Shown: positions 5,436-16,365 of the stretch, piece by piece
Layout: every line of letters begins with the position of its first letter
Numbering within the stretch: the stretch's first letter is position 1
Assembly: GCA_025454635.1 (NCBI GenBank)
Contig: JALOOB010000002.1
Span: 1 to 42,487 of the forward strand
Length of the DNA stretch: 42,487 bases
DNA from: Anaerolineae bacterium
GTDB lineage: Bacteria; Chloroflexota; Anaerolineae; CG2-30-64-16
Direction: 5' to 3'
The notes under the pieces: model-generated
What the model was told of the DNA's origin: nothing
Seen by the model: the letters and a program-made list of their open reading frames with translations, nothing else
Databases searched by the model: none
Program-made: the position numbers and the translations under genes

Positions 5436-6026
5436 ATGGACTTCAATCGCATTATCAATGGCATGATGCGCGCCATCCGCCTCGATAAGACATTTTTCGA
5501 GGAAGTCGAGAACGACCCGAGCTACAATCAGGACGCTCTTGGTGTCGTCATCATCGTGGCTGCCATCGGTTCCATCGGCAGCTTCATCGGCGCGCTTGTC
5601 ACCGGCGCGGGCTTTCTTGCCGCGATCGGCGGCCTCATCGTCTCCCTTGTGTTGGCGATCCTGGGCTACTTCCTGTGGGTCTTTGTGGCGCACTGGATCG
5701 GCACGCAGTTTTTCAAGGGTGTGGGCGATCGCGGGGAAGTGCAGCGTGCGCTGGGCTTTGCCTACGCGCCGCAGGCCCTCAATATCCTGAGCTTCATCCC
5801 CTGCGTTGGCGGAATCATTGCGTTTGCCGCGTGGATCTGGTCCATCGTTGCCGCTTTCATCGCCATCCGGCAGTCGCTTGAACAGGACGACGCCAATGCG
5901 GCGCTGACCGTCATCATTTCCGGTATCGCGATCATGATCGTCGTCGGCCTGATCGGCGCGATCTTCGCCGGCCTCGGCCTCGGCGTGGCTGCGCTGTCTG
6001 GCGCGCTGGGCAGCATCGGCCAGTAG
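5436..6026 (+). CDS. Yip1 family membrane protein
   Basis: GGAGG SD; about 5 TM segments; N-terminal FFEEVEND and RALGFAYAP motif. Confidence 0.75.
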   Translation: MDFNRIINGMMRAIRLDKTFFEEVENDPSYNQDALGVVIIVAAIGSIGSFIGALVTGAGFLAAIGGLIVSLVLAILGYFLWVFVAHWIGTQFFKGVGDRGEVQRALGFAYAPQALNILSFIPCVGGIIAFAAWIWSIVAAFIAIRQSLEQDDANAALTVIISGIAIMIVVGLIGAIFAGLGLGVAALSGALGSIGQ

Positions 6027-6070
6027 TCGGTCGCCACCCACCCCATCACATTCGTCGCACGGAGGTACTT

Positions 6071-6715
6071 ATGCTCGTAGGCGAGCGGATGACCCGCAAC
6101 CCTGTCACTATCCTCGATACGGCCAGCATCGACGACGGCATCCATCTGATGCGCGAGCGGAAGGTGCGCCGCCTGCCCGTCCTGGACGAGTCCGGCAAGA
6201 TGGTCGGCATCGTCTCGGACAAGGATTTGCTTCATGCGGCTCCGTCGCCCGCAACCTCGCTGAGCGTCTACGAGCTGCACTACCTGTTGGCGAAGCTGAC
6301 GATCAAGCAGGTGATGTCCAGCCCCGTGATCTCGGTCAGCCCGGACACGCCCCTCGAAGAGGCCGCGCGCGTAATGGCCGACAACAAGATTGGCGGCCTG
6401 CCCGTGAGCGAGGGCGATAAGCTCGTCGGCATCATCACCGAGACTGACGTCTTCAAGATCCTGGTCGAACTGCTGGGCGCACGGACTCCCGGACAGCGCG
6501 TGACGATCCGGGTAACTGAAGGAAAGGGCGTGCTGGCAAGGCTGACACAGGCCCTGTCGGACCTCGGCGCGAACATCATCAGCGTCGTGACCTACGCCGG
6601 CGCCAATGCGTCTGAGCGTCTCATCATGGTGAAGCTGAGCGACGCAGACTCGTCCGCGGTGCGCGGCGCGCTGGCAGGGCTCGGCGTCGAAGTGGTCGAC
6701 TTCCGCGGGGAGTAA
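6071..6715 (+). CDS. CBS-pair plus ACT domain protein (AcuB-like)
   Basis: GGAGG SD; RRLPVLD..GIVSDKD and IGGLPV..VGIITETD CBS motifs; C-terminal GVLARLTQAL...NIISV ACT domain. Confidence 0.85.
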   Translation: MLVGERMTRNPVTILDTASIDDGIHLMRERKVRRLPVLDESGKMVGIVSDKDLLHAAPSPATSLSVYELHYLLAKLTIKQVMSSPVISVSPDTPLEEAARVMADNKIGGLPVSEGDKLVGIITETDVFKILVELLGARTPGQRVTIRVTEGKGVLARLTQALSDLGANIISVVTYAGANASERLIMVKLSDADSSAVRGALAGLGVEVVDFRGE

Positions 6716-6722
6716 CGGAGGA

Positions 6723-6751
6723 TGTAGCGCAAGTTGCCAACTTGCGCTACA
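6723..6751. repeat. Perfect REP-like palindrome (GTAG family)
   Basis: TGTAGCGCAAGTTG-C-CAACTTGCGCTACA, 14-bp arms; related copy at 14222-14246. Confidence 0.85.
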
Positions 6752-6760
6752 GCTCAGACA

Positions 6761-7555
6761 TTGCGCCAGTATCTCGACCTAATGCGTCACATCATGGAGA
6801 GCGGCGCGGACAAGGGTGACCGCACCGGCACTGGCACGCGCTCCGTCTTCGGCTACCAGATGCGGTTCGACCTGGCCGCAGGCTTCCCCGTGCTCACCAC
6901 GAAGCGGCTGCACCTCAAGTCGATTATCTACGAACTGCTGTGGTTCATCCGCGGCGACACAAACGCGCGGTGGCTGCAGGAGCGCGGGGTGCGCATCTGG
7001 GACGAGTGGGCGGACGCAGGGGGCGAGCTGGGGCCCGTATACGGCAAGCAGTGGCGATCGTGGCCCGCCGCAGATGGTCGCGCAATCGACCAGTTGGGCG
7101 AGGTGATCGACCAGATTAAGCGCAATCCCAACTCGAGGCGCCTGATCGTCAGCGCGTGGAACGTCGGCGACATCGACAAGATGGCGCTGCCGCCATGCCA
7201 CGCGCTCTTCCAGTTCTATGTGGCAGACGGGCGGCTCTCGTGTCAGTTGTATCAGCGGTCGGTCGACGTGTTTCTCGGGCTGCCGTTCAACATCGCCTCG
7301 TACGCGCTGCTAACCATGATGGTGGCGCAGGTCTGCGACCTCGGCTATGGCGAATTCATCCACACGAGCGGCGATGCGCACCTCTACCGCAACCACTTCG
7401 ACCAGGCGCAGCTCCAGCTTGCCCGCGAGCCGCGCCCGCTCCCTACAATGCGCATCAATCCGGCCGTCAAGGAGATCGAAGGGTTCAGGTACGAGGATTT
7501 CGAGTTGGTCGGCTACGATCCGCACCCGCACATCAAGGCGGACGTTTCAGTGTGA
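6761..7555 (+). CDS. thyA: Thymidylate synthase
   Basis: TTG 6761 gives (M)RQYLDLM, matching the usual ThyA N-terminus; DRTGTGT, IWDEWA, LPPCH catalytic motif, [14 protein letters not shown]. Alternative TTG at 6734. Confidence 0.96.
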
Positions 7556-7566
7556 GAGCGACGGAT

Positions 7567-7612
7567 AACACAAAGACACGAGGGAAATAAGCTGACCTTG
7601 TGTCTTTGTGTT
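7567..7612. terminator. Hairpin between convergent thyA and ribF (ACACAAAG repeat family), possible bidirectional terminator
   Basis: AACACAAAGACACGAGG ... CCTTGTGTCTTTGTGTT arms. Confidence 0.65.
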
Positions 7613-7618
7613 GAAAGC

Positions 7619-8971
7619 TTAGACGTCGAAGGTCACGCGCGCTTCCCAGCCCGCCTCGGTGCGGCGCACGCGCAAATCGTGATAAGTCACGGCTTTGATG
7701 GCCGTGTGCGCGGGCGTGCCTTTGTGCCCGTACGCGACCCCGCGAATTCCCCGCTCGCTGAGCTCGTAGATCTCGAAGCGGGTGTGCATTTCGCCGCCCA
7801 ACTCCTGCCCCAGCAGCAGGCGGTTCAGCCACGCAACGAGCAGCTCCTCGAAGCCTTCGGCGTCCGCGCTGATTGCGCGGGCGACAGTCACCGGCTGCGC
7901 CGCGTCCGCGTCCTGTAGCGCGTACATGGCGGCGGCCGCGTTGGCGAATAGCCCCCGCTCGTCCTCGCCCGTCACGTCGATGGCCCAGTCTGCGGTGTGA
8001 ACCAACTCGCGCCAGGCGCCTTCTTCCGGCCGCTGCGCGTCTGTCGGCGGCGACGCCAGGATGCGGCGGGCAGTTTCTGCGTCCGTGGTGATCTGCGCGA
8101 CCAGTTCGTCGATGCTGGTGAATTTCTTCTCCCCGCGCAGCCGCGCGACAAAGCTCAAGCCAAGAACCTCGCCGTACAGGTTGCCGGAGAAGTCGAGCAG
8201 GTAGGCCTCGATGGAGGGATGGCCGTTGTCGAAGCTCGGGCGGACGCCGACGTTCACCACAGCTGGACAGCCGGTGTCGCCTCGCCACGCCCAACAAGCA
8301 TACACGCCGTAGGCTGGCGTGAGCCGTTCCTGTGGGAGCAGCAAATTGGCGGTTGGGAAGCCGAGCGTGCGCCCTCGCTGCGCGCCGAGCACGACTTTGC
8401 CCCACACCCGGTACGGCCGCCCCAGCAGGTCCGCCGCTTCCTCAACTGCGCCTTGCTCGCTCAGGAGAGTGCGAATGCGGCTGGAGCGCACCTGCTCCCC
8501 GCGCCACACGAACGGTGGCACGATGCGCAGGTCATAACCTAGCGCGCGGCCGAGCTCCGCGAGCCGCTCCGTGTTGCCCTCGCGGCCCTTGCCGAGCGCG
8601 AAGTCCGGCCCGACCCACAACTCGCGCAGCGGCAGATGTCGGGTGAGCTGCGCGAGGAAGTCCGCGGCAGGGGTGGCGGCGGTGTCGCGGGTGAATGGAT
8701 GCGCAACGACGAAGTCGAGGCCGAGCGCGGCCAGCAGATCGGTGCGTTCCTCGTTCGTCGTCAGGCGGGCGGTCTTGAGTTCGGGGCGGAGCACCGCAAC
8801 CGGATGCGGCTCGAAGGTGAGCAGCCCGGCGCGGCCCCCTGCGGTGTGCGCGGCAGCGGCCAGCTCGCCAATGAGCATCTGGTGCCCGCGATGCACGCCG
8901 TCGAAGTTGCCGATCGCCAGGTAGACCGGGCCGTCAAGAGGTGGGCTGGGGAAACCCTCGAAGACGTCCAT
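7619..8971 (-). CDS. ribF: Bifunctional FAD synthetase/riboflavin kinase fused to a C-terminal archease domain
   Basis: ATG overlaps the truB stop (TGATG). RibF motifs GNFDGVHRGHQ, TFEPHP, GRTLGFPTAN, NVGVRPSF, RLRGEKKF; then archease motifs VHTAD, LLVAWLNRLL, IKAVTYH and terminal TFDV (7619-8014). Confidence 0.92.
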   Translation of the reverse strand: MDVFEGFPSPPLDGPVYLAIGNFDGVHRGHQMLIGELAAAAHTAGGRAGLLTFEPHPVAVLRPELKTARLTTNEERTDLLAALGLDFVVAHPFTRDTAATPAADFLAQLTRHLPLRELWVGPDFALGKGREGNTERLAELGRALGYDLRIVPPFVWRGEQVRSSRIRTLLSEQGAVEEAADLLGRPYRVWGKVVLGAQRGRTLGFPTANLLLPQERLTPAYGVYACWAWRGDTGCPAVVNVGVRPSFDNGHPSIEAYLLDFSGNLYGEVLGLSFVARLRGEKKFTSIDELVAQITTDAETARRILASPPTDAQRPEEGAWRELVHTADWAIDVTGEDERGLFANAAAAMYALQDADAAQPVTVARAISADAEGFEELLVAWLNRLLLGQELGGEMHTRFEIYELSERGIRGVAYGHKGTPAHTAIKAVTYHDLRVRRTEAGWEARVTFDV

Positions 8972-9855
8972 CACTCGCCTGCCGCAAACACCTTGTCCGG
9001 CCACCATTCGCTCGGCGCTTCATGGCGCAGAATGGCGACAACGCTGCCATCGTCGCCCAGCGCGTAACCGGCGCGACTGTGCGCGGCGTTGCCGTCGATG
9101 GGCTGTCCGTTGCGAAGCCGCTTGATCTGCTCCGCGTTCACCGGCACGGGCGTCAGGGCGGAGAGGGCGGTCGAGATGGGATGCAAATGGCGGTTCAACT
9201 CGCCCGCCCGGTGGGCTTCGGCCATGCCTTCCGGGCTCAGCCCGTCCTCCACGAGAAACCGCCCGCTGCGCGTGCGGCGCAGTCCGGCCAGCGCGCCGCC
9301 GCAGCCAAGCGACTGTCCAAGATCATGGGCCAGGCTGCGGATGTACGTGCCGGGTTCGCAGGTCACGTCGAGCGTCAGACACGGCGGCGCCCAGTTAACC
9401 ATTTGGATGCTGTGGATCGTGACCGCACGCGCAGAAGGCCTGACCTCCTCGCCGCGTCGCGCCCGGCGGTGCAGCGGCACGCCGTCCTGCTTAATCGCGG
9501 AGTAGGCGGGCGGCGCCTGCATGATCTCGCCCACGAAGTGGCCGAGCGCCTGCCAGATCACGCCGCGGTCGATCTCCGCGGGCAGCGGCCGCGACTCGAT
9601 CACCTCGCCGTCCAGGTCGTACGTGTCGGTGATCGTGCCCAACTGGATATCGGCCCGGTAGGTCTTGTCAGAGGCCATCAGGTACTCGCTGACGCGAGTT
9701 GCCTGGCCGACGCAGACCAACAGGACGCCGGTGGCAAGTGGGTCGAGTGTGCCGGCATGACCAACGCGTTTCACCTTGAGCACGCGGCGGATCCATGCGA
9801 CGACATCGTGCGAGGTCCAGCCTTGCGGCTTGTCAATGTTCAGGATACCGTCCAA
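8971..9855 (-). CDS. truB: tRNA pseudouridine(55) synthase
   Basis: GILNIDKPQGWTSHDVV, GHAGTLDPLATG, PPAYSAIK, GTYIRSL; TTG start at 9855 inferred from homology. Confidence 0.95.
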   Translation of the reverse strand: MDGILNIDKPQGWTSHDVVAWIRRVLKVKRVGHAGTLDPLATGVLLVCVGQATRVSEYLMASDKTYRADIQLGTITDTYDLDGEVIESRPLPAEIDRGVIWQALGHFVGEIMQAPPAYSAIKQDGVPLHRRARRGEEVRPSARAVTIHSIQMVNWAPPCLTLDVTCEPGTYIRSLAHDLGQSLGCGGALAGLRRTRSGRFLVEDGLSPEGMAEAHRAGELNRHLHPISTALSALTPVPVNAEQIKRLRNGQPIDGNAAHSRAGYALGDDGSVVAILRHEAPSEWWPDKVFAAGE

Positions 9856-9886
9856 ACTACTTCTCGCTTCGATGAAATCGACGACA

Positions 9887-9949
9887 AACACAAAGATACA
9901 AAGTCACAAGGAAGACTATGTTGCCATCGTGTCTTTGTGTCTTGGTGTT
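9887..9949. repeat. Octamer-periodic inverted repeat (ACACAAAG) overlapping the nrnA stop
   Basis: AACACAAAGATACAAAGTCACAAG ... TCGTGTCTTTGTGTCTTGGTGTT. Confidence 0.75.
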
Positions 9950-10938
9950 GACGACGAGCTCAGGCTCGCGGCATGAACAAGCGGCAGCACGCGCGCCTGC
10001 GCATCGGCCAGCGGGCCGGTCAGCAGGCAGCCGGCTGCCTGCGGATGTCCGCCGCCGCCGAGGCTCAACGCGACTGTTGCGACGTCGTAACCCGGCCGCG
10101 ACCGGAAGTCCACCTCGATGCGACCGTCCGCCAGCTCGTTGAAGACCACGGCGACCCGCGCCTCGGCCGCGTTGATGAGCTGGCTGACCAGCCCGCCGTC
10201 GTCCTCGTCCAGGATGCCCGCAGCCTCGCGCATCGCCTTTGTGACTTCCGCCCACAAGACATAACCGTCAAGATGCGCCCGCTCGAACGCCATGCCCCAC
10301 AGCCGCATGTGCTTGAAGGGACGGGTGGCAAGCGTTCGTTGGCTTACGTCGGCCAGATTCGCGCCGGCCTCAATGAGGCGGACGGCAGCGGCCAGCTCGG
10401 CCGCGGTGACGTTGCTCGTGCGGAAGCCGAGCGTGTCGGTCACGAGGCCGACGAGCAGGGGCGTGGCCGCTTCCTTCGGCAGGGGCACGCCAAGCGCGTC
10501 CGCGAGCGCGATGACAAGCTGGCTTGTCGAAGCCGCTTCGGGCGCGACATAGTTCAGGTTGCCGAAGTGCAGGTTGGTGATGTGGTGGTCGACGACGATC
10601 AGTGGGGTCGGCGTGAACGCGAGGTTCGAGAAGATGGCGCCCAGCCGCGCCGGATCGCTCGCGTCGAGCGAGACAACAAGGTCGGGCTGGAAGCCCTCGG
10701 GCAGCGCGTTGACGATGCGCTCGACGCCGGGCACGAAGAACAGGGATTCCGGCGGGCGGTCCTGGCACGCCAGGACGACGGCGCGCTCGCCGGGCAGAGC
10801 GTCCAGAACGTACCCCAGCCCGAGCAGCGACCCGATTGCGTCGCCGTCTGGGTTGACGTGGCAGAACGCCACGAGGGACGCGGCCCCCATGATGGGGGCC
10901 ACGAGGTCACTCAGATTCGCGCTGTTCGGCGTCGGCAT
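9916..10938 (-). CDS. nrnA: DHH/DHHA1 phosphoesterase (nanoRNase/pAp phosphatase)
   Basis: HVNPDGDAIGS, VDHH, LVTDT, GGGGHPQAAG; usual position between rbfA and truB. Start approximate. Confidence 0.9.
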   Translation of the reverse strand: MPTPNSANLSDLVAPIMGAASLVAFCHVNPDGDAIGSLLGLGYVLDALPGERAVVLACQDRPPESLFFVPGVERIVNALPEGFQPDLVVSLDASDPARLGAIFSNLAFTPTPLIVVDHHITNLHFGNLNYVAPEAASTSQLVIALADALGVPLPKEAATPLLVGLVTDTLGFRTSNVTAAELAAAVRLIEAGANLADVSQRTLATRPFKHMRLWGMAFERAHLDGYVLWAEVTKAMREAAGILDEDDGGLVSQLINAAEARVAVVFNELADGRIEVDFRSRPGYDVATVALSLGGGGHPQAAGCLLTGPLADAQARVLPLVHAASLSSSSTPRHKDTMAT

Positions 10939-11335
10939 GGTGATCCTGTCCCGGCGCTTGCGCGGCCGCCCGCTCGGCGGATTTTCGCTCCGCAGCGATC
11001 TGATCGAGGATGTCGTCCACATGCGAGGCGCGCTTCTCTGTGTCGTCTACGACGAAGTGCAACTCGGGCACCACGCGCAGGTGAAGGTTCTCCACCAGCG
11101 CGCGGCGCAGGAACGTGGTCGAGTGCTGCAATGCGCTCAGCACGTGGCGCGTCTGCGAATCGGGCAGCGCGTGCTGGATAAACACGCGCGCGTTGCCCAA
11201 ATCCGCCGAAACCTGCACGTCCGTGACGGTGACCATCGCGTCTTCCAGTCGCGGATCGGTTAGTTCGCTGCCAATGAGAAGCCCAAGCTCCTCAGTTAAC
11301 ACCTCGGCAATGCGTTCTTGCCGGCGAGAAGTCAT
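10907..11335 (-). CDS. rbfA: Ribosome-binding factor A
   Basis: RQERIAE, DPRL, VTVTDVQVSADL, LRVVPELHFVVD; TAATG coupling to infB. Confidence 0.95.
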   Translation of the reverse strand: MTSRRQERIAEVLTEELGLLIGSELTDPRLEDAMVTVTDVQVSADLGNARVFIQHALPDSQTRHVLSALQHSTTFLRRALVENLHLRVVPELHFVVDDTEKRASHVDDILDQIAAERKSAERAAAQAPGQDHHADAEQRESE

Positions 11336-13947
11336 TACAGCACCCGTTCCTTCTTGTAGGCCTCCAGCACGTCGCCCGTCTCGAAGTCATGGAAGTTGTG
11401 CAGGTGGATGCCGCACTCGAATCCTGTCTTGACCTCGGGGACGTCCTCCTGGAACCGCTTCAACGCGGCGATCTTGTCCTCGGCGATCACCTCGCCCGCG
11501 CGCTTCACCCGAACCGGGGAGTTGCGCTGGATCTCGCCGTCCAGGATATAGCAGCCGGCCACCTTGCCGACCTTCGACACCCGGAAGACCTGGCGAATTT
11601 CCGCATGGCCCGTGACGACTTCCTTATACACGGGCTCCAACATCCCCTGGAGCGCCTTCTGCACGTCCTCAATGATGTTGTAGATGATGTTGTAGATGCG
11701 AATGTCGATGCCTTCGGCCTCGGCCATCTTCTGCGCGCCGCCGTCCGCAACGACGGAGAAGCCGACGACGATGGCGTGCGACGCGACCGCGAGCATGACG
11801 TCCGACTCGCTGATGTTGCCCGTGCCCTGGTGCAGAATCTTCACCTTCAGCTTGTCCGTGCTGAGCTTTTCGAGCGAGTTCACGATCGGCTCGATGGACC
11901 CCTGCACGTCCGCCTTCAGGATCAAGTTGAGTTCCTTCACCTGGCCCGCTTCAGCCGCAGCGAAGATGCTCTCCAGCGTGCGCGCCGGCGCCGGGCCTGC
12001 GGCCGCCTTCTTGGCAAGCTGCCGTTCGGATGCAATCCCCCGCGCGGTCCGGTCGTCCGCAACCACCTTGAACGTTTCGCCAGCAACCGGCACGTCGGAG
12101 AAGCCCAGGATCTGCACCGGCCTCGCGGGCTTGGCCTCCGTTATCGGCTCGCCCTTGTCATCATACATGGCGCGAATCTTGGCGTAAGTTTCCCCGCTCA
12201 CGATGCTGTCGCTCACGTGGAGCGTGCCGTTCTGGACCAGCAAGGTCGCCATCGGGCCGCGCTGCTTGTCGAGCCGGCTCTCGATGACCGTGCCCACGCA
12301 GTCGCCTTTCGGGTTTGCTGTCTGCGGGTCGACGTCGGCCAGGAGCAGGATGCTCTCGAGCAGGTCATCGATGCCGCGGCGCATCTTGGCCGAAACCGGG
12401 ACGCACATGACGTCGCCGCCGTACTCTTCGATGAGCACGCCGTTGTCCGCCAGCTCCTGCTTGACCCGGTCCGGGTTAGCCTGCGCCTTGTCGATCTTGT
12501 TCAGCGCCACGATGATCGGCACTTGGGCCGCTTTGACGTGCGCGATCGCCTCTTTTGTCTGCGGCATGACGCCGTCGTCCGCGGCCACCACCACGATGGC
12601 GATGTCGGTCACCTGGGCGCCGCGCGCGCGCATGGCCGTAAACGCCTCATGGCCGGGTGTGTCGAGGAACGTGATCTTGCGCCCGTTAATCTCGACCTGG
12701 TACGCGCCGATGTGCTGCGTGATGCCGCCCGCTTCGCCTTCGACCACGCGCGTCTCGCGGATCGCATCGAGCAGGGTGGTCTTGCCGTGGTCGACATGGC
12801 CGAGCACAACGACGACCGGCGGGCGAACCTCCATGTCCTCCGCCTTCTCCTGCGCCAGGATGCGCTGTCGCAACGTCTGCGGCGCAGCCTCGGGCTCGGC
12901 GGCCACTTCGGGCTCGGGCGCCTTTTCGCGGTTGACCGCAATGCCAAGTTCTTCGCCGATGAGCGCAGCCGTGTCGTAGTCGATGGACTCGGTGATGGTG
13001 ACCATCATGCCGTAATTCATCAGGGTCTTGATGACCTCGATCGGGCTCTTCCGCATCTTCTCGGCGAGATCGCGAATCGTGATCGTGTCGCCGATGACCA
13101 GCTCCGTTACAGCCGCCTGGGCTGCCGCAGTGGGCCGGGCCGCGCCGGTGAGGGGCGGCGGCGCAAGGCGTTCGCCGGGTGGCAACTGAGCCTGACGCGA
13201 CTTGCCCTGCGGCCGACGCTGGTTGTTGCCGCCCGGACGGTTGCCGCCCGACGGACCCCCGCCGGTGCGCTGTTGCGGGCCGGTCCGTTGCGGGCCGCCG
13301 CGATCCGGCGCGCCGAATCCGCCGCCACCGCTCGGCGCGCCACCGCCGCCACCGCCGTAACCGCCGCCCGGGCGGCCCTGCGAGGGTCCACGGTTCTGAC
13401 CGCCGTAGCCCCCTTGGGGGCCACCACCACCACCGCCGCCGCCACCACCACTGTAACCGCCACCGGGCCGGCCCTGTGAGGGACCGCGGTTCTGTCCGCC
13501 GTAGCCGCCCGCCGGCCGCGGGCCGCTGGGCGCGGGGCGTCCGCGTGGAACGACTGTGTCCTCGGACGTGGGGTCGAAGACGCGTTGGTTGAACACCTCG
13601 TCATCGCCCCCCTGGTTTGGCTGCCCGCCCGGCCGGTTGCCGGGGCGAGTCTCGCCGGGACGCGAAGGCGCGGGGCTGCGATTGCCGTCCGGCGCGGAGC
13701 CGGGCTTGGCCCCCGGGGCCGATGGTTTGGCAAAGGAGGGCGTTTTGGGCTGCCGGCTCGCATCGTTGCGCTGGCCGTTTTCCGCCGGCTTGCTCCCTGG
13801 GCGCGCCGCCTGGTCAGGCGTCTGTGGTCGCCCTTGGCCCTGGCCGGCAGGTCGCGCCTGCGGCTGGCGCGGTGTATTCTGGTTCTGGGTTTCGTTTTCA
13901 GTCGAGGCCCCGCTGGGCTGCTCGGCTTTCGGGTTGTCGTTCGCCAT
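11335..13947 (-). CDS. infB: Translation initiation factor IF-2
   Basis: AGGAGG SD; [33 protein letters not shown]; long Gly/Pro/Gln-rich N-terminus. Confidence 0.97.
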
Positions 13948-14562: not shown

Positions 14563-16206
14563 CTAGTATTCCACGTCGCCCCAGCCGCCGCGGCCCGGCT
14601 TGCGCTTGCGCCGCGCAACCACCTCGCCCAGGTCCTCGTCGAAGACCAGCTCGCGCTTCTTAGTGTCCTTCTTAACCTTCTTCGCCGGGGCCTTCTTCCC
14701 TGCGCCGCCCTCTTCCTCGTCTTCGATCAATTCGTCGTCCACGAAGGCTTCGGGCACGAGGAACTGCTCACCCGCGTCGCCCATGCTCTGGGGCTCGGGC
14801 TCTGCCGGCGCGACCTCCGCCGGCCCAGGCTCGGCGGCGACCTCTTCTTCCTCAACGGCGGGCGCAACGGCTTCCGCAACTTCAGGAGCGGCGGCTTCGG
14901 CCTCGACCATCTCAGTTTCGGGCTGGGCCTCTGCCTCTTCTTCGATTTGCGGCAGGTCGGGCCGGTTCTGATCGGCCTGCGCCAGCAAGCGAGCGGCCGT
15001 TTCCAGAGTGGCCTGCGTCTTGTCGCGTTCGCGCAGCAGCCATTCCGCGCGGCTGAGGAGGTCGTCGCCCGCGGGCAGCGCCGCGGCCTTGTCCTGCAGC
15101 GAGCGCTGGCGGATCATCTGCATCTGCTGCCGCTTAATCTCGGCCAGGCCCTCGGTCGCAGCCTCGGTCTCGCTCTTGATGTCGATGCGCCAACCGGTCA
15201 GCTTGGCCGCAAGGCGCGCATTCTGGCCTTCCTTGCCAATGGCGAGCGAGAGCTGGCGGTCAGGCACCACTACGATAGCGGTGCGGATATCGCCTTCTTC
15301 GATCAGGATCGTATCGGTCGGCTTGGCGGGGCTGAGCGCGTTGCTAATGAAGCTGCGCACGTCAGCAGACCATTCGACCACGTCGATCTTCTCGCCGTTC
15401 AGTTCGTCCACGATGTTCTGGATGCGTGTGCCGCGCAGGCCGACACAGGAGCCGACGGGATCGACGCCGGGCTGGCTGGCGGAGACGGCTACCTTCGAGC
15501 GCTGGCCCGGTTCGCGAGCGATGCTCTTGATTTCGACCGTGCCGCTGTAAATTTCGGGGATTTCGCGCTCGAGCAGGCGGCGTAGCATATTGCGATGTGT
15601 GCGCGACAGGCGAATCTGAGGCCCCCGCGTGCCCTTGTTGATCTCTGCGAGCAGCGTGCGGACGTTCATGCCCACGCGGTAGCGGTCGTTCGGAAGTTGG
15701 TCTTCCGCCGCAATGATGCCCTCGGCCTTCTTGCTGAGCGTGACCGTCACCGCGTTGCTGCGGTAGTCGATCGACTGCACCTGGCCGGTGATCAGTTCGC
15801 CTTCGCGCTGCTTGTAGAAATCGAACAGCTGGTCACGCTCTGCCTCATGGATGCGCTGGAGAATGACCTGTTTGGCCGTCTGCGCGGCAATGCGGCCGAA
15901 ATCCGCCGGCTCGCGGTGGTCGATGACCGTGCTGCCAAGTTCCGCGTCCTTGTCCAGCTTGCGGGCCTCGGGCAGGCCGATTTCGACCGCGGGATCCTCG
16001 ACCTTTTCAACCACGGTCTTCTCGCAGGAAATGCTGAGGTCGCCCGTGTTCGGATCGATGGTTGCTTGGACGTTGGCCGTGGCGTTGGCGTAATTGCGCC
16101 GGTAGGCGTGGACCAATGCTTCCTCGATGGCTCCCAGGATCGTCTCGCGCGGCAACTCTTTCTCCGCGCAGATCTGGTTGACAGCCATGATCAGCTCTTT
16201 GCTCAT
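14563..16206 (-). CDS. nusA: Transcription termination/antitermination factor NusA with long acidic C-terminal tail
   Basis: GAAGGA SD, ATG 16206; [41 protein letters not shown]. Confidence 0.96.
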
Positions 16207-16275
16207 TTCCTTCGTTCTCTCCCGCAAAATGCCCACCGGCCTGACGCCGGGTTTGTTCCGTTCCGGGACCCTTAC

Positions 16276-16306
16276 AACAAAGAAAGCCGGGGGGTTCCCG
16301 ACTTTC
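16276..16306 (-). terminator. Leader terminator/attenuator hairpin of the nusA operon
   Basis: GAAAGTCGGG ... CCCGGCTTTC hairpin followed by TTTGTT, located between the promoter and nusA. Confidence 0.65.
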
Positions 16307-16336
16307 CGCAGAAGAGTGCCTGAAGCTAATGTCAAG

Positions 16337-16365
16337 ATAATAGCATAGCTTTGCAGAAGGGTCAA
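16337..16365 (-). promoter_or_regulatory. Sigma70-type promoter of the nusA operon
   Basis: TTGACC-N17-TATTAT with extended -10 TG. Confidence 0.75.

Follow-up and report, generated by a model that had tools for sequence, protein, structure and literature searches.

A RibF-archease fusion in Anaerolineae and its probable origin from neighbouring genes

The fusion gene and its surroundings

The minus strand of the window (the whole stretch of 42,487 nt that was analysed, from a MAG of 549 contigs and 76.8% completeness) holds a single open frame from 7619 to 9007, which encodes 462 aa. Within this frame, the ATG at 8971 gives a fusion product of 450 aa, followed by the stop codon at 7619-7621. 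This ATG is likely the true start of the gene, since it overlaps the stop codon of truB by one base and since 450 aa is the length of a 100%-identical protein (P0002). The database relatives listed are of similar length, 447-510 aa. The first-pass annotation had placed the gene at 7619-8971, and with the ATG at 8971 as the best start these coordinates are right. The features of the locus are as follows.

7619..8971, minus strand: ribF::archease fusion gene; the search of this MAG gave no second match to RibF or to archease
8477..8932, minus strand: FMN adenylyltransferase module (Pfam FAD_syn); its HxGH motif is present, with H27 and H30 invariant in alignment A1
8057..8425, minus strand: riboflavin kinase module (Pfam Flavokinase); the model matches the fold of Corynebacterium ammoniagenes FAD synthetase (2x0k, TMt 0.83)
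8015..8056, minus strand: linker ASPPTDAQRPEEGA, 14 residues, crossed without indels by contigs from two runs
7622..8014, minus strand: complete archease domain, by Pfam, alignment with 4n2p and fold match
7997-7999 (His), 7988-7990 (Asp), 7694-7696 (Lys), 7625-7627 (Asp) and 7622-7624 (terminal Val), minus strand: tip residues of archease
8003..8005, minus strand: in-frame TTG three codons before the tip His, with the purine-rich GGAAGAAGG about 14 nt upstream; a possible internal start, from reading of the sequence
8971..9891, minus strand: truB, whose stop codon (8973-8971) shares one base with the ATG of the fusion
9916-11022, minus strand: DHH/DHHA1 (NrnA-like) gene, upstream of the fusion
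10907-11335, minus strand: rbfA, upstream of the fusion
11335-13947, minus strand: infB, upstream of the fusion
14563-16365, minus strand: nusA, upstream of the fusion
6734..7555, plus strand: thyA, convergent to the fusion, at the place where rtcB lies in relatives that keep the order truB-ribF(::)archease-rtcB

When the 462-aa frame was searched with Pfam, FAD_syn was found at residues 26-177 (E = 3e-40), Flavokinase at residues 195-317 (E = 1e-41) and Archease (PF01951) at residues 332-462, the last over profile positions 1-136 of 136 and with 93.2 bits against a cut-off of 25. In a genome-wide profile search the archease domain scores 96.8 bits. The RibF equivalog models of NCBIfam were also passed, both NF004160 (304.1 against 295) and TIGR00083 (236.1 against 184.35). 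With all three families in one frame and the archease profile matched from end to end, the earlier proposal of a real fusion with a complete archease is borne out. The residues H27, G29, H30, P206, T207 and N209 of the RibF part are invariant in alignment A1; we take HxGH to be the motif of the transferase and PTAN that of the kinase. The short motifs read from the letters at first, namely the linker, HTAD, IKAVTYH and the FDV end, are all present as stated, and the linker contains no ATG, with the in-frame TTG at 8005-8003 present instead. Among 45 fused relatives, the linker varies in length from 10 to 74 aa and has 29% identity, against 60% for the archease part and 65% for the RibF part. 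By this comparison, the archease part is conserved about as well as RibF, and the linker is not.

In Pyrococcus horikoshii archease, changes of H9, D12, K117 or D141, or deletion of I142, severely reduce RtcB activation (Desai et al. 2014, PMC3973293). In the human complex (PMC10944509), a third Mn is held at the gamma-phosphate of GTP by D51, D178 and the I179 carboxylate, K156 binds phosphate, and the archease that was crystallised with RTCB carried an N-terminal His tag. All of these positions can be followed into the fusion. Its HTAD aligns with HTAD of 4n2p, that is, with H9 and D12 of P. horikoshii. IKAVTYH aligns with VKAITYH of 4n2p, and its Lys (K426, invariant in alignment A1) is K117 of P. 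horikoshii and K156 of the human protein. The C-terminus, FDV followed by the stop, consists of Asp and one last residue, as do D141-I142 in P. horikoshii and D178-I179 in human. None of the 121 fused proteins has lost HxAD, KxxT or Asp-X-stop, and the same motifs persist in all 40 loci compared (26 of 26 fused, 14 of 14 adjacent). That archease invariably comes last is explained by its C-terminal carboxylate, a metal ligand that has to remain free. By analogy with the published structures, the join would be tolerated only in the order RibF-archease.

The operon context nusA-infB-rbfA-DHH/DHHA1-truB, named in the first-pass annotation, is present upstream of the fusion. When read as its longest frame, from 11022, the DHH/DHHA1 gene overlaps rbfA (10907-11335) by 116 nt; its real start is probably further downstream. 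As had also been said, rtcB is absent from the 42,487-nt window. The operon feature of archease next to rtcB is therefore not found here, and the convergent thyA adjoins the fusion instead.

Contigs from two metagenome runs cross the linker without a stop or an indel. The contig of run X2 spans 7500-8915 with four substitutions and zero gaps, and that of run X1, over 7500-8274, differs by a single substitution and by 8 bases inserted at 7597, outside the frame. The fusion frame remains open with the substitutions of either contig; one of these runs may be the source of the window itself. The insertion at 7597 reads TTGTGTCT and lies within the 63 nt that separate the fusion gene from the convergent thyA; it is a strain difference outside the frames. 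A metatranscriptome run (X13) gave two 151-base contigs of depth 2 over 8549-8863 only, which is too little to claim transcription. At 8850-8957, three metagenome runs show a 10- to 30-fold rise in summed contig depth, together with numerous short contigs and loose ends. This segment is the conserved N-terminal RibF motif region, which draws in contigs of other organisms, and the rise does not reflect copy number.

Spread of the fusion, gene order and the whereabouts of rtcB

The three-domain architecture was found in all 120 of the best 120 database relatives. Those of them that carry a name are Chloroflexi or Anaerolineae MAGs, annotated 'RibF' only. Among 80 public genome loci found with the fusion protein (all from uncultured MAGs, nearly all labelled Chloroflexota), 26 carry the two parts within a single open frame. 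Of 401 genomes sampled from the same class, 82 (among them the window's own) yield a match that extends across both parts; two unpublished genomes, G370 and G411, count in the denominator only. Most of these spanning matches (73/82) are free of any stop. Among the nine with a stop, that of G054 is a true gene pair split by TAG, and in G003 and G024 the archease match lies inside open frames of 447 and 454 aa. In the ESM Atlas, a cluster of 203 members carries the same three families, with Archease in 93% of them. A further 160 genomes of the phylum, largely from other classes, include 46 with archease, in no case within a frame of at least 400 aa. Many relatives thus share the fusion, and the two genes are not always separate.

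These counts bear on the suspicion that two genes were wrongly joined by assembly or sequencing. In favour of it, the source genome is a fragmented MAG. However, the same architecture recurs in 120 of 120 best relatives from many sources, 26 loci from other assemblies have the fused frame, and contigs of two runs cross the linker without indels. An artefact is therefore rejected and can be regarded as practically excluded.

Some other archease genes were met in the course of this survey. In two genomes of another class (family f96), archease lies in open frames of 397 aa (G509:C154:9720-10118) and 339 aa (G562:C24:20548-20946), too short for RibF, and these may have a different N-terminal fusion partner. 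The family relative G022 has a stand-alone archease (C376:1909-2310, 141 bits) besides the fused one (C34:4617-5009, 85 bits); this genome is 7% contaminated, and the extra copy may be foreign.

The gene order in relatives offers a series of states between separate and fused genes. In G054 the order is truB, ribF (322 aa), TAG, archease (137 aa) and rtcB, and G056 has the same order with a gap of about 330 nt. At locus L079, the end of ribF (6001-6963) shares 20 nt with the start of archease (6944-7354), which is in another frame, and rtcB comes next, at 7391. In G059 and G041 the order is truB, ribF::archease, rtcB. Counted over the 80 loci, ribF and archease are adjacent and unfused in 15, with rtcB directly downstream in 11 of these, and no archease lies behind ribF in 39. 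Among the 26 fused loci, rtcB is directly downstream in seven and absent within 2 kb or more in 16; the remaining three are too short downstream. From this series, the origin of the fusion is most likely the adjacency of neighbouring genes. The ancestral Anaerolineae row would have been truB-ribF-archease-rtcB, in which the frame of ribF touched or overlapped that of archease. The two would then have been joined when the stop of ribF was lost or when a small (one-base) shift of frame arose in the overlap; some lineages would have kept rtcB behind the fusion, and in the window's family rtcB would later have moved to another locus. The fusion follows from gene order, since archease and rtcB already stand behind truB-ribF in unfused relatives. 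For the same reason, the first suggestion that the fusion newly puts archease under this operon is not supported, as the unfused relatives have archease and rtcB behind truB-ribF on the same strand. On a RibF tree the fused state has to change five times, but no more than one change is required by well-supported branches. This tree excludes loci in which the RibF match was partial or split or in which too little sequence lay downstream (L041, L042, L054, L056, L063, L068 and L069, and also L076, L077, L084, L085, L087, L091 and L095).

RtcB was found in all 36 family relatives, including seven of seven in the genus. Of 64 further genomes that carry the fusion, 61 have an RtcB match as well. 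The present MAG (76.8% complete) gave no such match, either with the family model or with an RtcB protein of the same genus at E values up to 1. In the three family relatives examined for its position, rtcB is flanked by a MoaA-like radical-SAM gene on one side and by B12-binding radical-SAM genes on the other, and an ArsR-type regulator precedes them. In this MAG, contig C547 ends within the MoaA-like gene, after its first 39 residues, and the B12-binding radical-SAM gene starts at base 3 of contig C257. Since the former runs off the end of one contig and the latter opens another, the expected place of rtcB is an assembly gap. Thus, rtcB is probably not lost from this MAG, its presence being judged from the flanking genes only. 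Loci L112-L114 (G003:C58, G024:C4 and G012:C6) show this block as an ArsR-HTH/MetOD1 regulator, a MoaA-like radical SAM, rtcB and a B12-binding radical SAM, of which the last occurs as two genes in G024.

Besides the window's own, four fusion genomes are without an RtcB match (G407, G098, G050 and G142). G407 is 75% complete and its fusion gene runs off the contig, so that it is uninformative. In G050 (97% complete) and G142 (94%), the archease tails score only 20 and 28 bits and have lost the His, the Lys and the Asp-X end, with the RibF domains intact at 137-148 bits. Decay of the tip in genomes without RtcB fits a tip that is kept for RtcB and not for RibF, in the two genomes of this kind. 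G098 (95% complete) is at odds with a simple 'decay after loss', as it has no RtcB match and its archease domain is intact except for His to Tyr. The degenerate tails of G050 and G142 (loci L108, G050:C74, and L109, G142:C27) are still open over about 120-135 residues and keep the central helix motif. This near-normal length hints at a second, structural role, and the RibF of these two genomes may depend on the docked domain.

The reverse state was met in the family relatives G001, G008 and G011 (65-80% complete), in which RtcB is present and the archease match is broken or partial. The splitting of rtcB itself in G001 and G011 suggests that the broken archease matches are assembly errors. As a separate observation, many Anaerolineae rtcB genes lie in open frames of about 940-1060 aa, in which the RtcB profile matches in two pieces, 1-50 and 46-426, with about 1.5 kb between them (for example G049:C1:2797622-2800456, G040:C78, G037:C248, G033:C10, G275:C150 and G216:C162). 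This pattern suggests an intein, or some other large insertion, following residue 50.

Predicted docking and the role of the archease part

AlphaFold2, run with 45 sequences, gave a model of the fusion with a mean pLDDT of 93.3, a pTM of 0.91 and no disordered stretch. In Foldseek, the first 320 residues match the C. ammoniagenes FAD synthetase 2x0k (TMt 0.83), and the archease part matches 4n2p_A (TMt 0.74), 8btx (0.72) and 8odo_B (0.68); the Foldseek search returned no structure entry that covers the RibF and archease parts together. When the two parts were given as separate chains, they were predicted to dock with a score of 0.87, against 0.00 for the best of three controls. Among solved complexes, 116 of 157 attain the mark applied to such scores, as do 2 of 215 mismatched pairs; these counts hold only roughly for the present pair, for which our own alignment was used. 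The docking runs agree in at least 96% of contacts, with partner pLDDT of at least 89, and the pass does not reflect a memorised structure, since no like complex has been solved. On the archease side the confident contacts are at 360-370, 388, 392 and 400-412. On the RibF side they are at residues 26 and 31 beside HxGH (V26 and Q31), at 78-84, at the inter-module hinge 184-185, at the hairpin 227-236 and in the last helix. The tip residues H325, D328, K426, T429, D449 and V450 are absent from the confident contacts. Archease is thus predicted to dock on RibF via a face other than the tip, and the tip appears to be free.

From these results we prefer, with a probability of about 0.7, the reading that the fusion was born of adjacency, that RibF does its usual job and that the docked archease still serves RtcB. 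The RibF part would go on producing FMN and FAD in the ordinary way. The archease tip (His, Asp, Lys, Asp and the terminal carboxylate) would insert into RtcB's active site and promote guanylylation, and archease would do so while carried on RibF and docked via a different face. The join would set archease and RibF at 1:1 under the truB-ribF transcript, and no coupling of flavin synthesis to RNA ligation needs to be assumed. That the archease part serves RtcB is suggested, at the sequence level, by its co-occurrence with RtcB and by its decay where RtcB was not found.

Other roles of the archease part have to be weighed against this reading. It may be mainly a structural element, a docked stabiliser of RibF, for which RtcB activation is secondary or has been lost in the window's family. 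The predicted docking and the persistence of the tails after loss of the tip in G050 and G142 would agree with this, as would the Archease HMM scores, which are 81-99 bits for most complete matches in the window's family and mostly 110-141 bits for stand-alone forms of the class. However, the tip is invariant throughout the 121 fused proteins, the majority of which belong to the window's own lineage, and RtcB was found in every one of the 36 family relatives, so that a mainly structural role seems unlikely; the view of the domain as a passenger is rejected as well. The idea that archease may act on RibF itself, raised in the first-pass annotation, goes further. Archease would then work in cis, either aiding adenylyl transfer by the FMN adenylyltransferase module as it aids guanylyl transfer by RtcB, or as an allosteric regulator. 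Docking of the separate chains, the high pTM of the whole protein, the contacts of V26 and Q31 flanking HxGH and the near-normal length of the degenerate tails can all be cited for a cis role, although the docking score is a confidence of the model and not a measurement. Against it, the catalytic tip residues are outside the predicted RibF contacts, the tip has decayed in the two genomes without detected RtcB while RibF is intact, and RibF does without archease elsewhere, as in the 39 loci that have none beside ribF. This idea is not supported, and we consider a cis role quite unlikely.

Two more proposals concern how archease is made and what it senses. Free archease could also be produced by internal initiation, for example at the TTG at 8005-8003, which would be compatible with service to RtcB from the docked state but would make the fusion protein less important to RtcB. 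This TTG is in frame and three codons before the His, with a purine-rich stretch upstream, and the archease of unfused relatives begins inside or just past the end of ribF. The product, however, would be without the Trp-x-Glu that precedes the His and is conserved in the A1 consensus, and such initiation is judged very unlikely. A link between flavin synthesis and RNA repair is unsupported, and it is very unlikely that the fusion is more than an accident of gene order in the sense that RtcB activation is tied to flavin or redox status via RibF. In one conceivable form, resting on the docked model, archease would sit rigidly beside the ATP site of the FMN adenylyltransferase, and the nucleotide or flavin state of RibF would gate exposure of the tip. 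In the other, RibF-bound flavin would act near the oxidation-sensitive cysteine of RtcB, by analogy with human PYROXD1. PYROXD1 is a FAD-containing protector of human RTCB and competes with archease at the RTCB active site (PMC12263435).

Comparison with known systems

The passages of PMC4275035 on archease do not mention a RibF fusion. No mention of a RibF-archease fusion was found in the literature searched, which lay outside subscription journals and the InterPro architecture tables. What appears to be new is the RibF::archease architecture of known parts; the sequences are already public and named only RibF. Archease has so far been studied as a free, transiently binding cofactor. This lineage offers a natural archease that is tethered at its N-terminus to a 35-kDa enzyme and predicted to be docked there. 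If the fusion still activates RtcB, it would show how much of the archease surface is dispensable, and it would be a ready-made, possibly more stable activator construct. The states separate, overlapping, fused with rtcB, fused with rtcB moved, and decayed in genomes without detected RtcB make a clean case of fusion by gene order, and a warning that not every fusion is a functional link. For annotation, hundreds of public 'RibF' proteins also carry the cell's sole archease.

Set beside known systems, the RibF part agrees with bifunctional RibF (C. ammoniagenes 2X0K; TIGR00083) in modules, motifs, fold (TMt 0.83) and the position of its gene downstream of truB, and differs in that the fusion adds a third, unrelated C-terminal domain of about 130 residues. 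PYROXD1 (PMC12263435) is likewise a flavin-linked protein meeting an RtcB-type ligase at the active site; however, it has no sequence or fold relation to RibF, and RibF makes FAD and is not an oxidoreductase. The likeness offers a lead only, and only for the flavin or redox proposal. The archease-rtcB 'tRNA splicing operon' (Desai et al. 2014, PMC3973293) has its counterpart in many relatives of the class, in which archease, free or fused, stands directly upstream of rtcB on the same strand. Here, in contrast, the pair is appended to truB-ribF, and in the window's family rtcB is gone from the locus. The closest likeness is to stand-alone archease (PF01951; 4N2P, 8BTX, 8ODO/8ODP), with which the fused part shares the full-length profile, the fold, the tip residues and the co-occurrence with RtcB. 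Stand-alone archease is a free 16-kDa protein, whereas in the window's family archease forms the C-terminal domain of a 49-kDa enzyme, on which it is predicted to dock, and is encoded away from rtcB.
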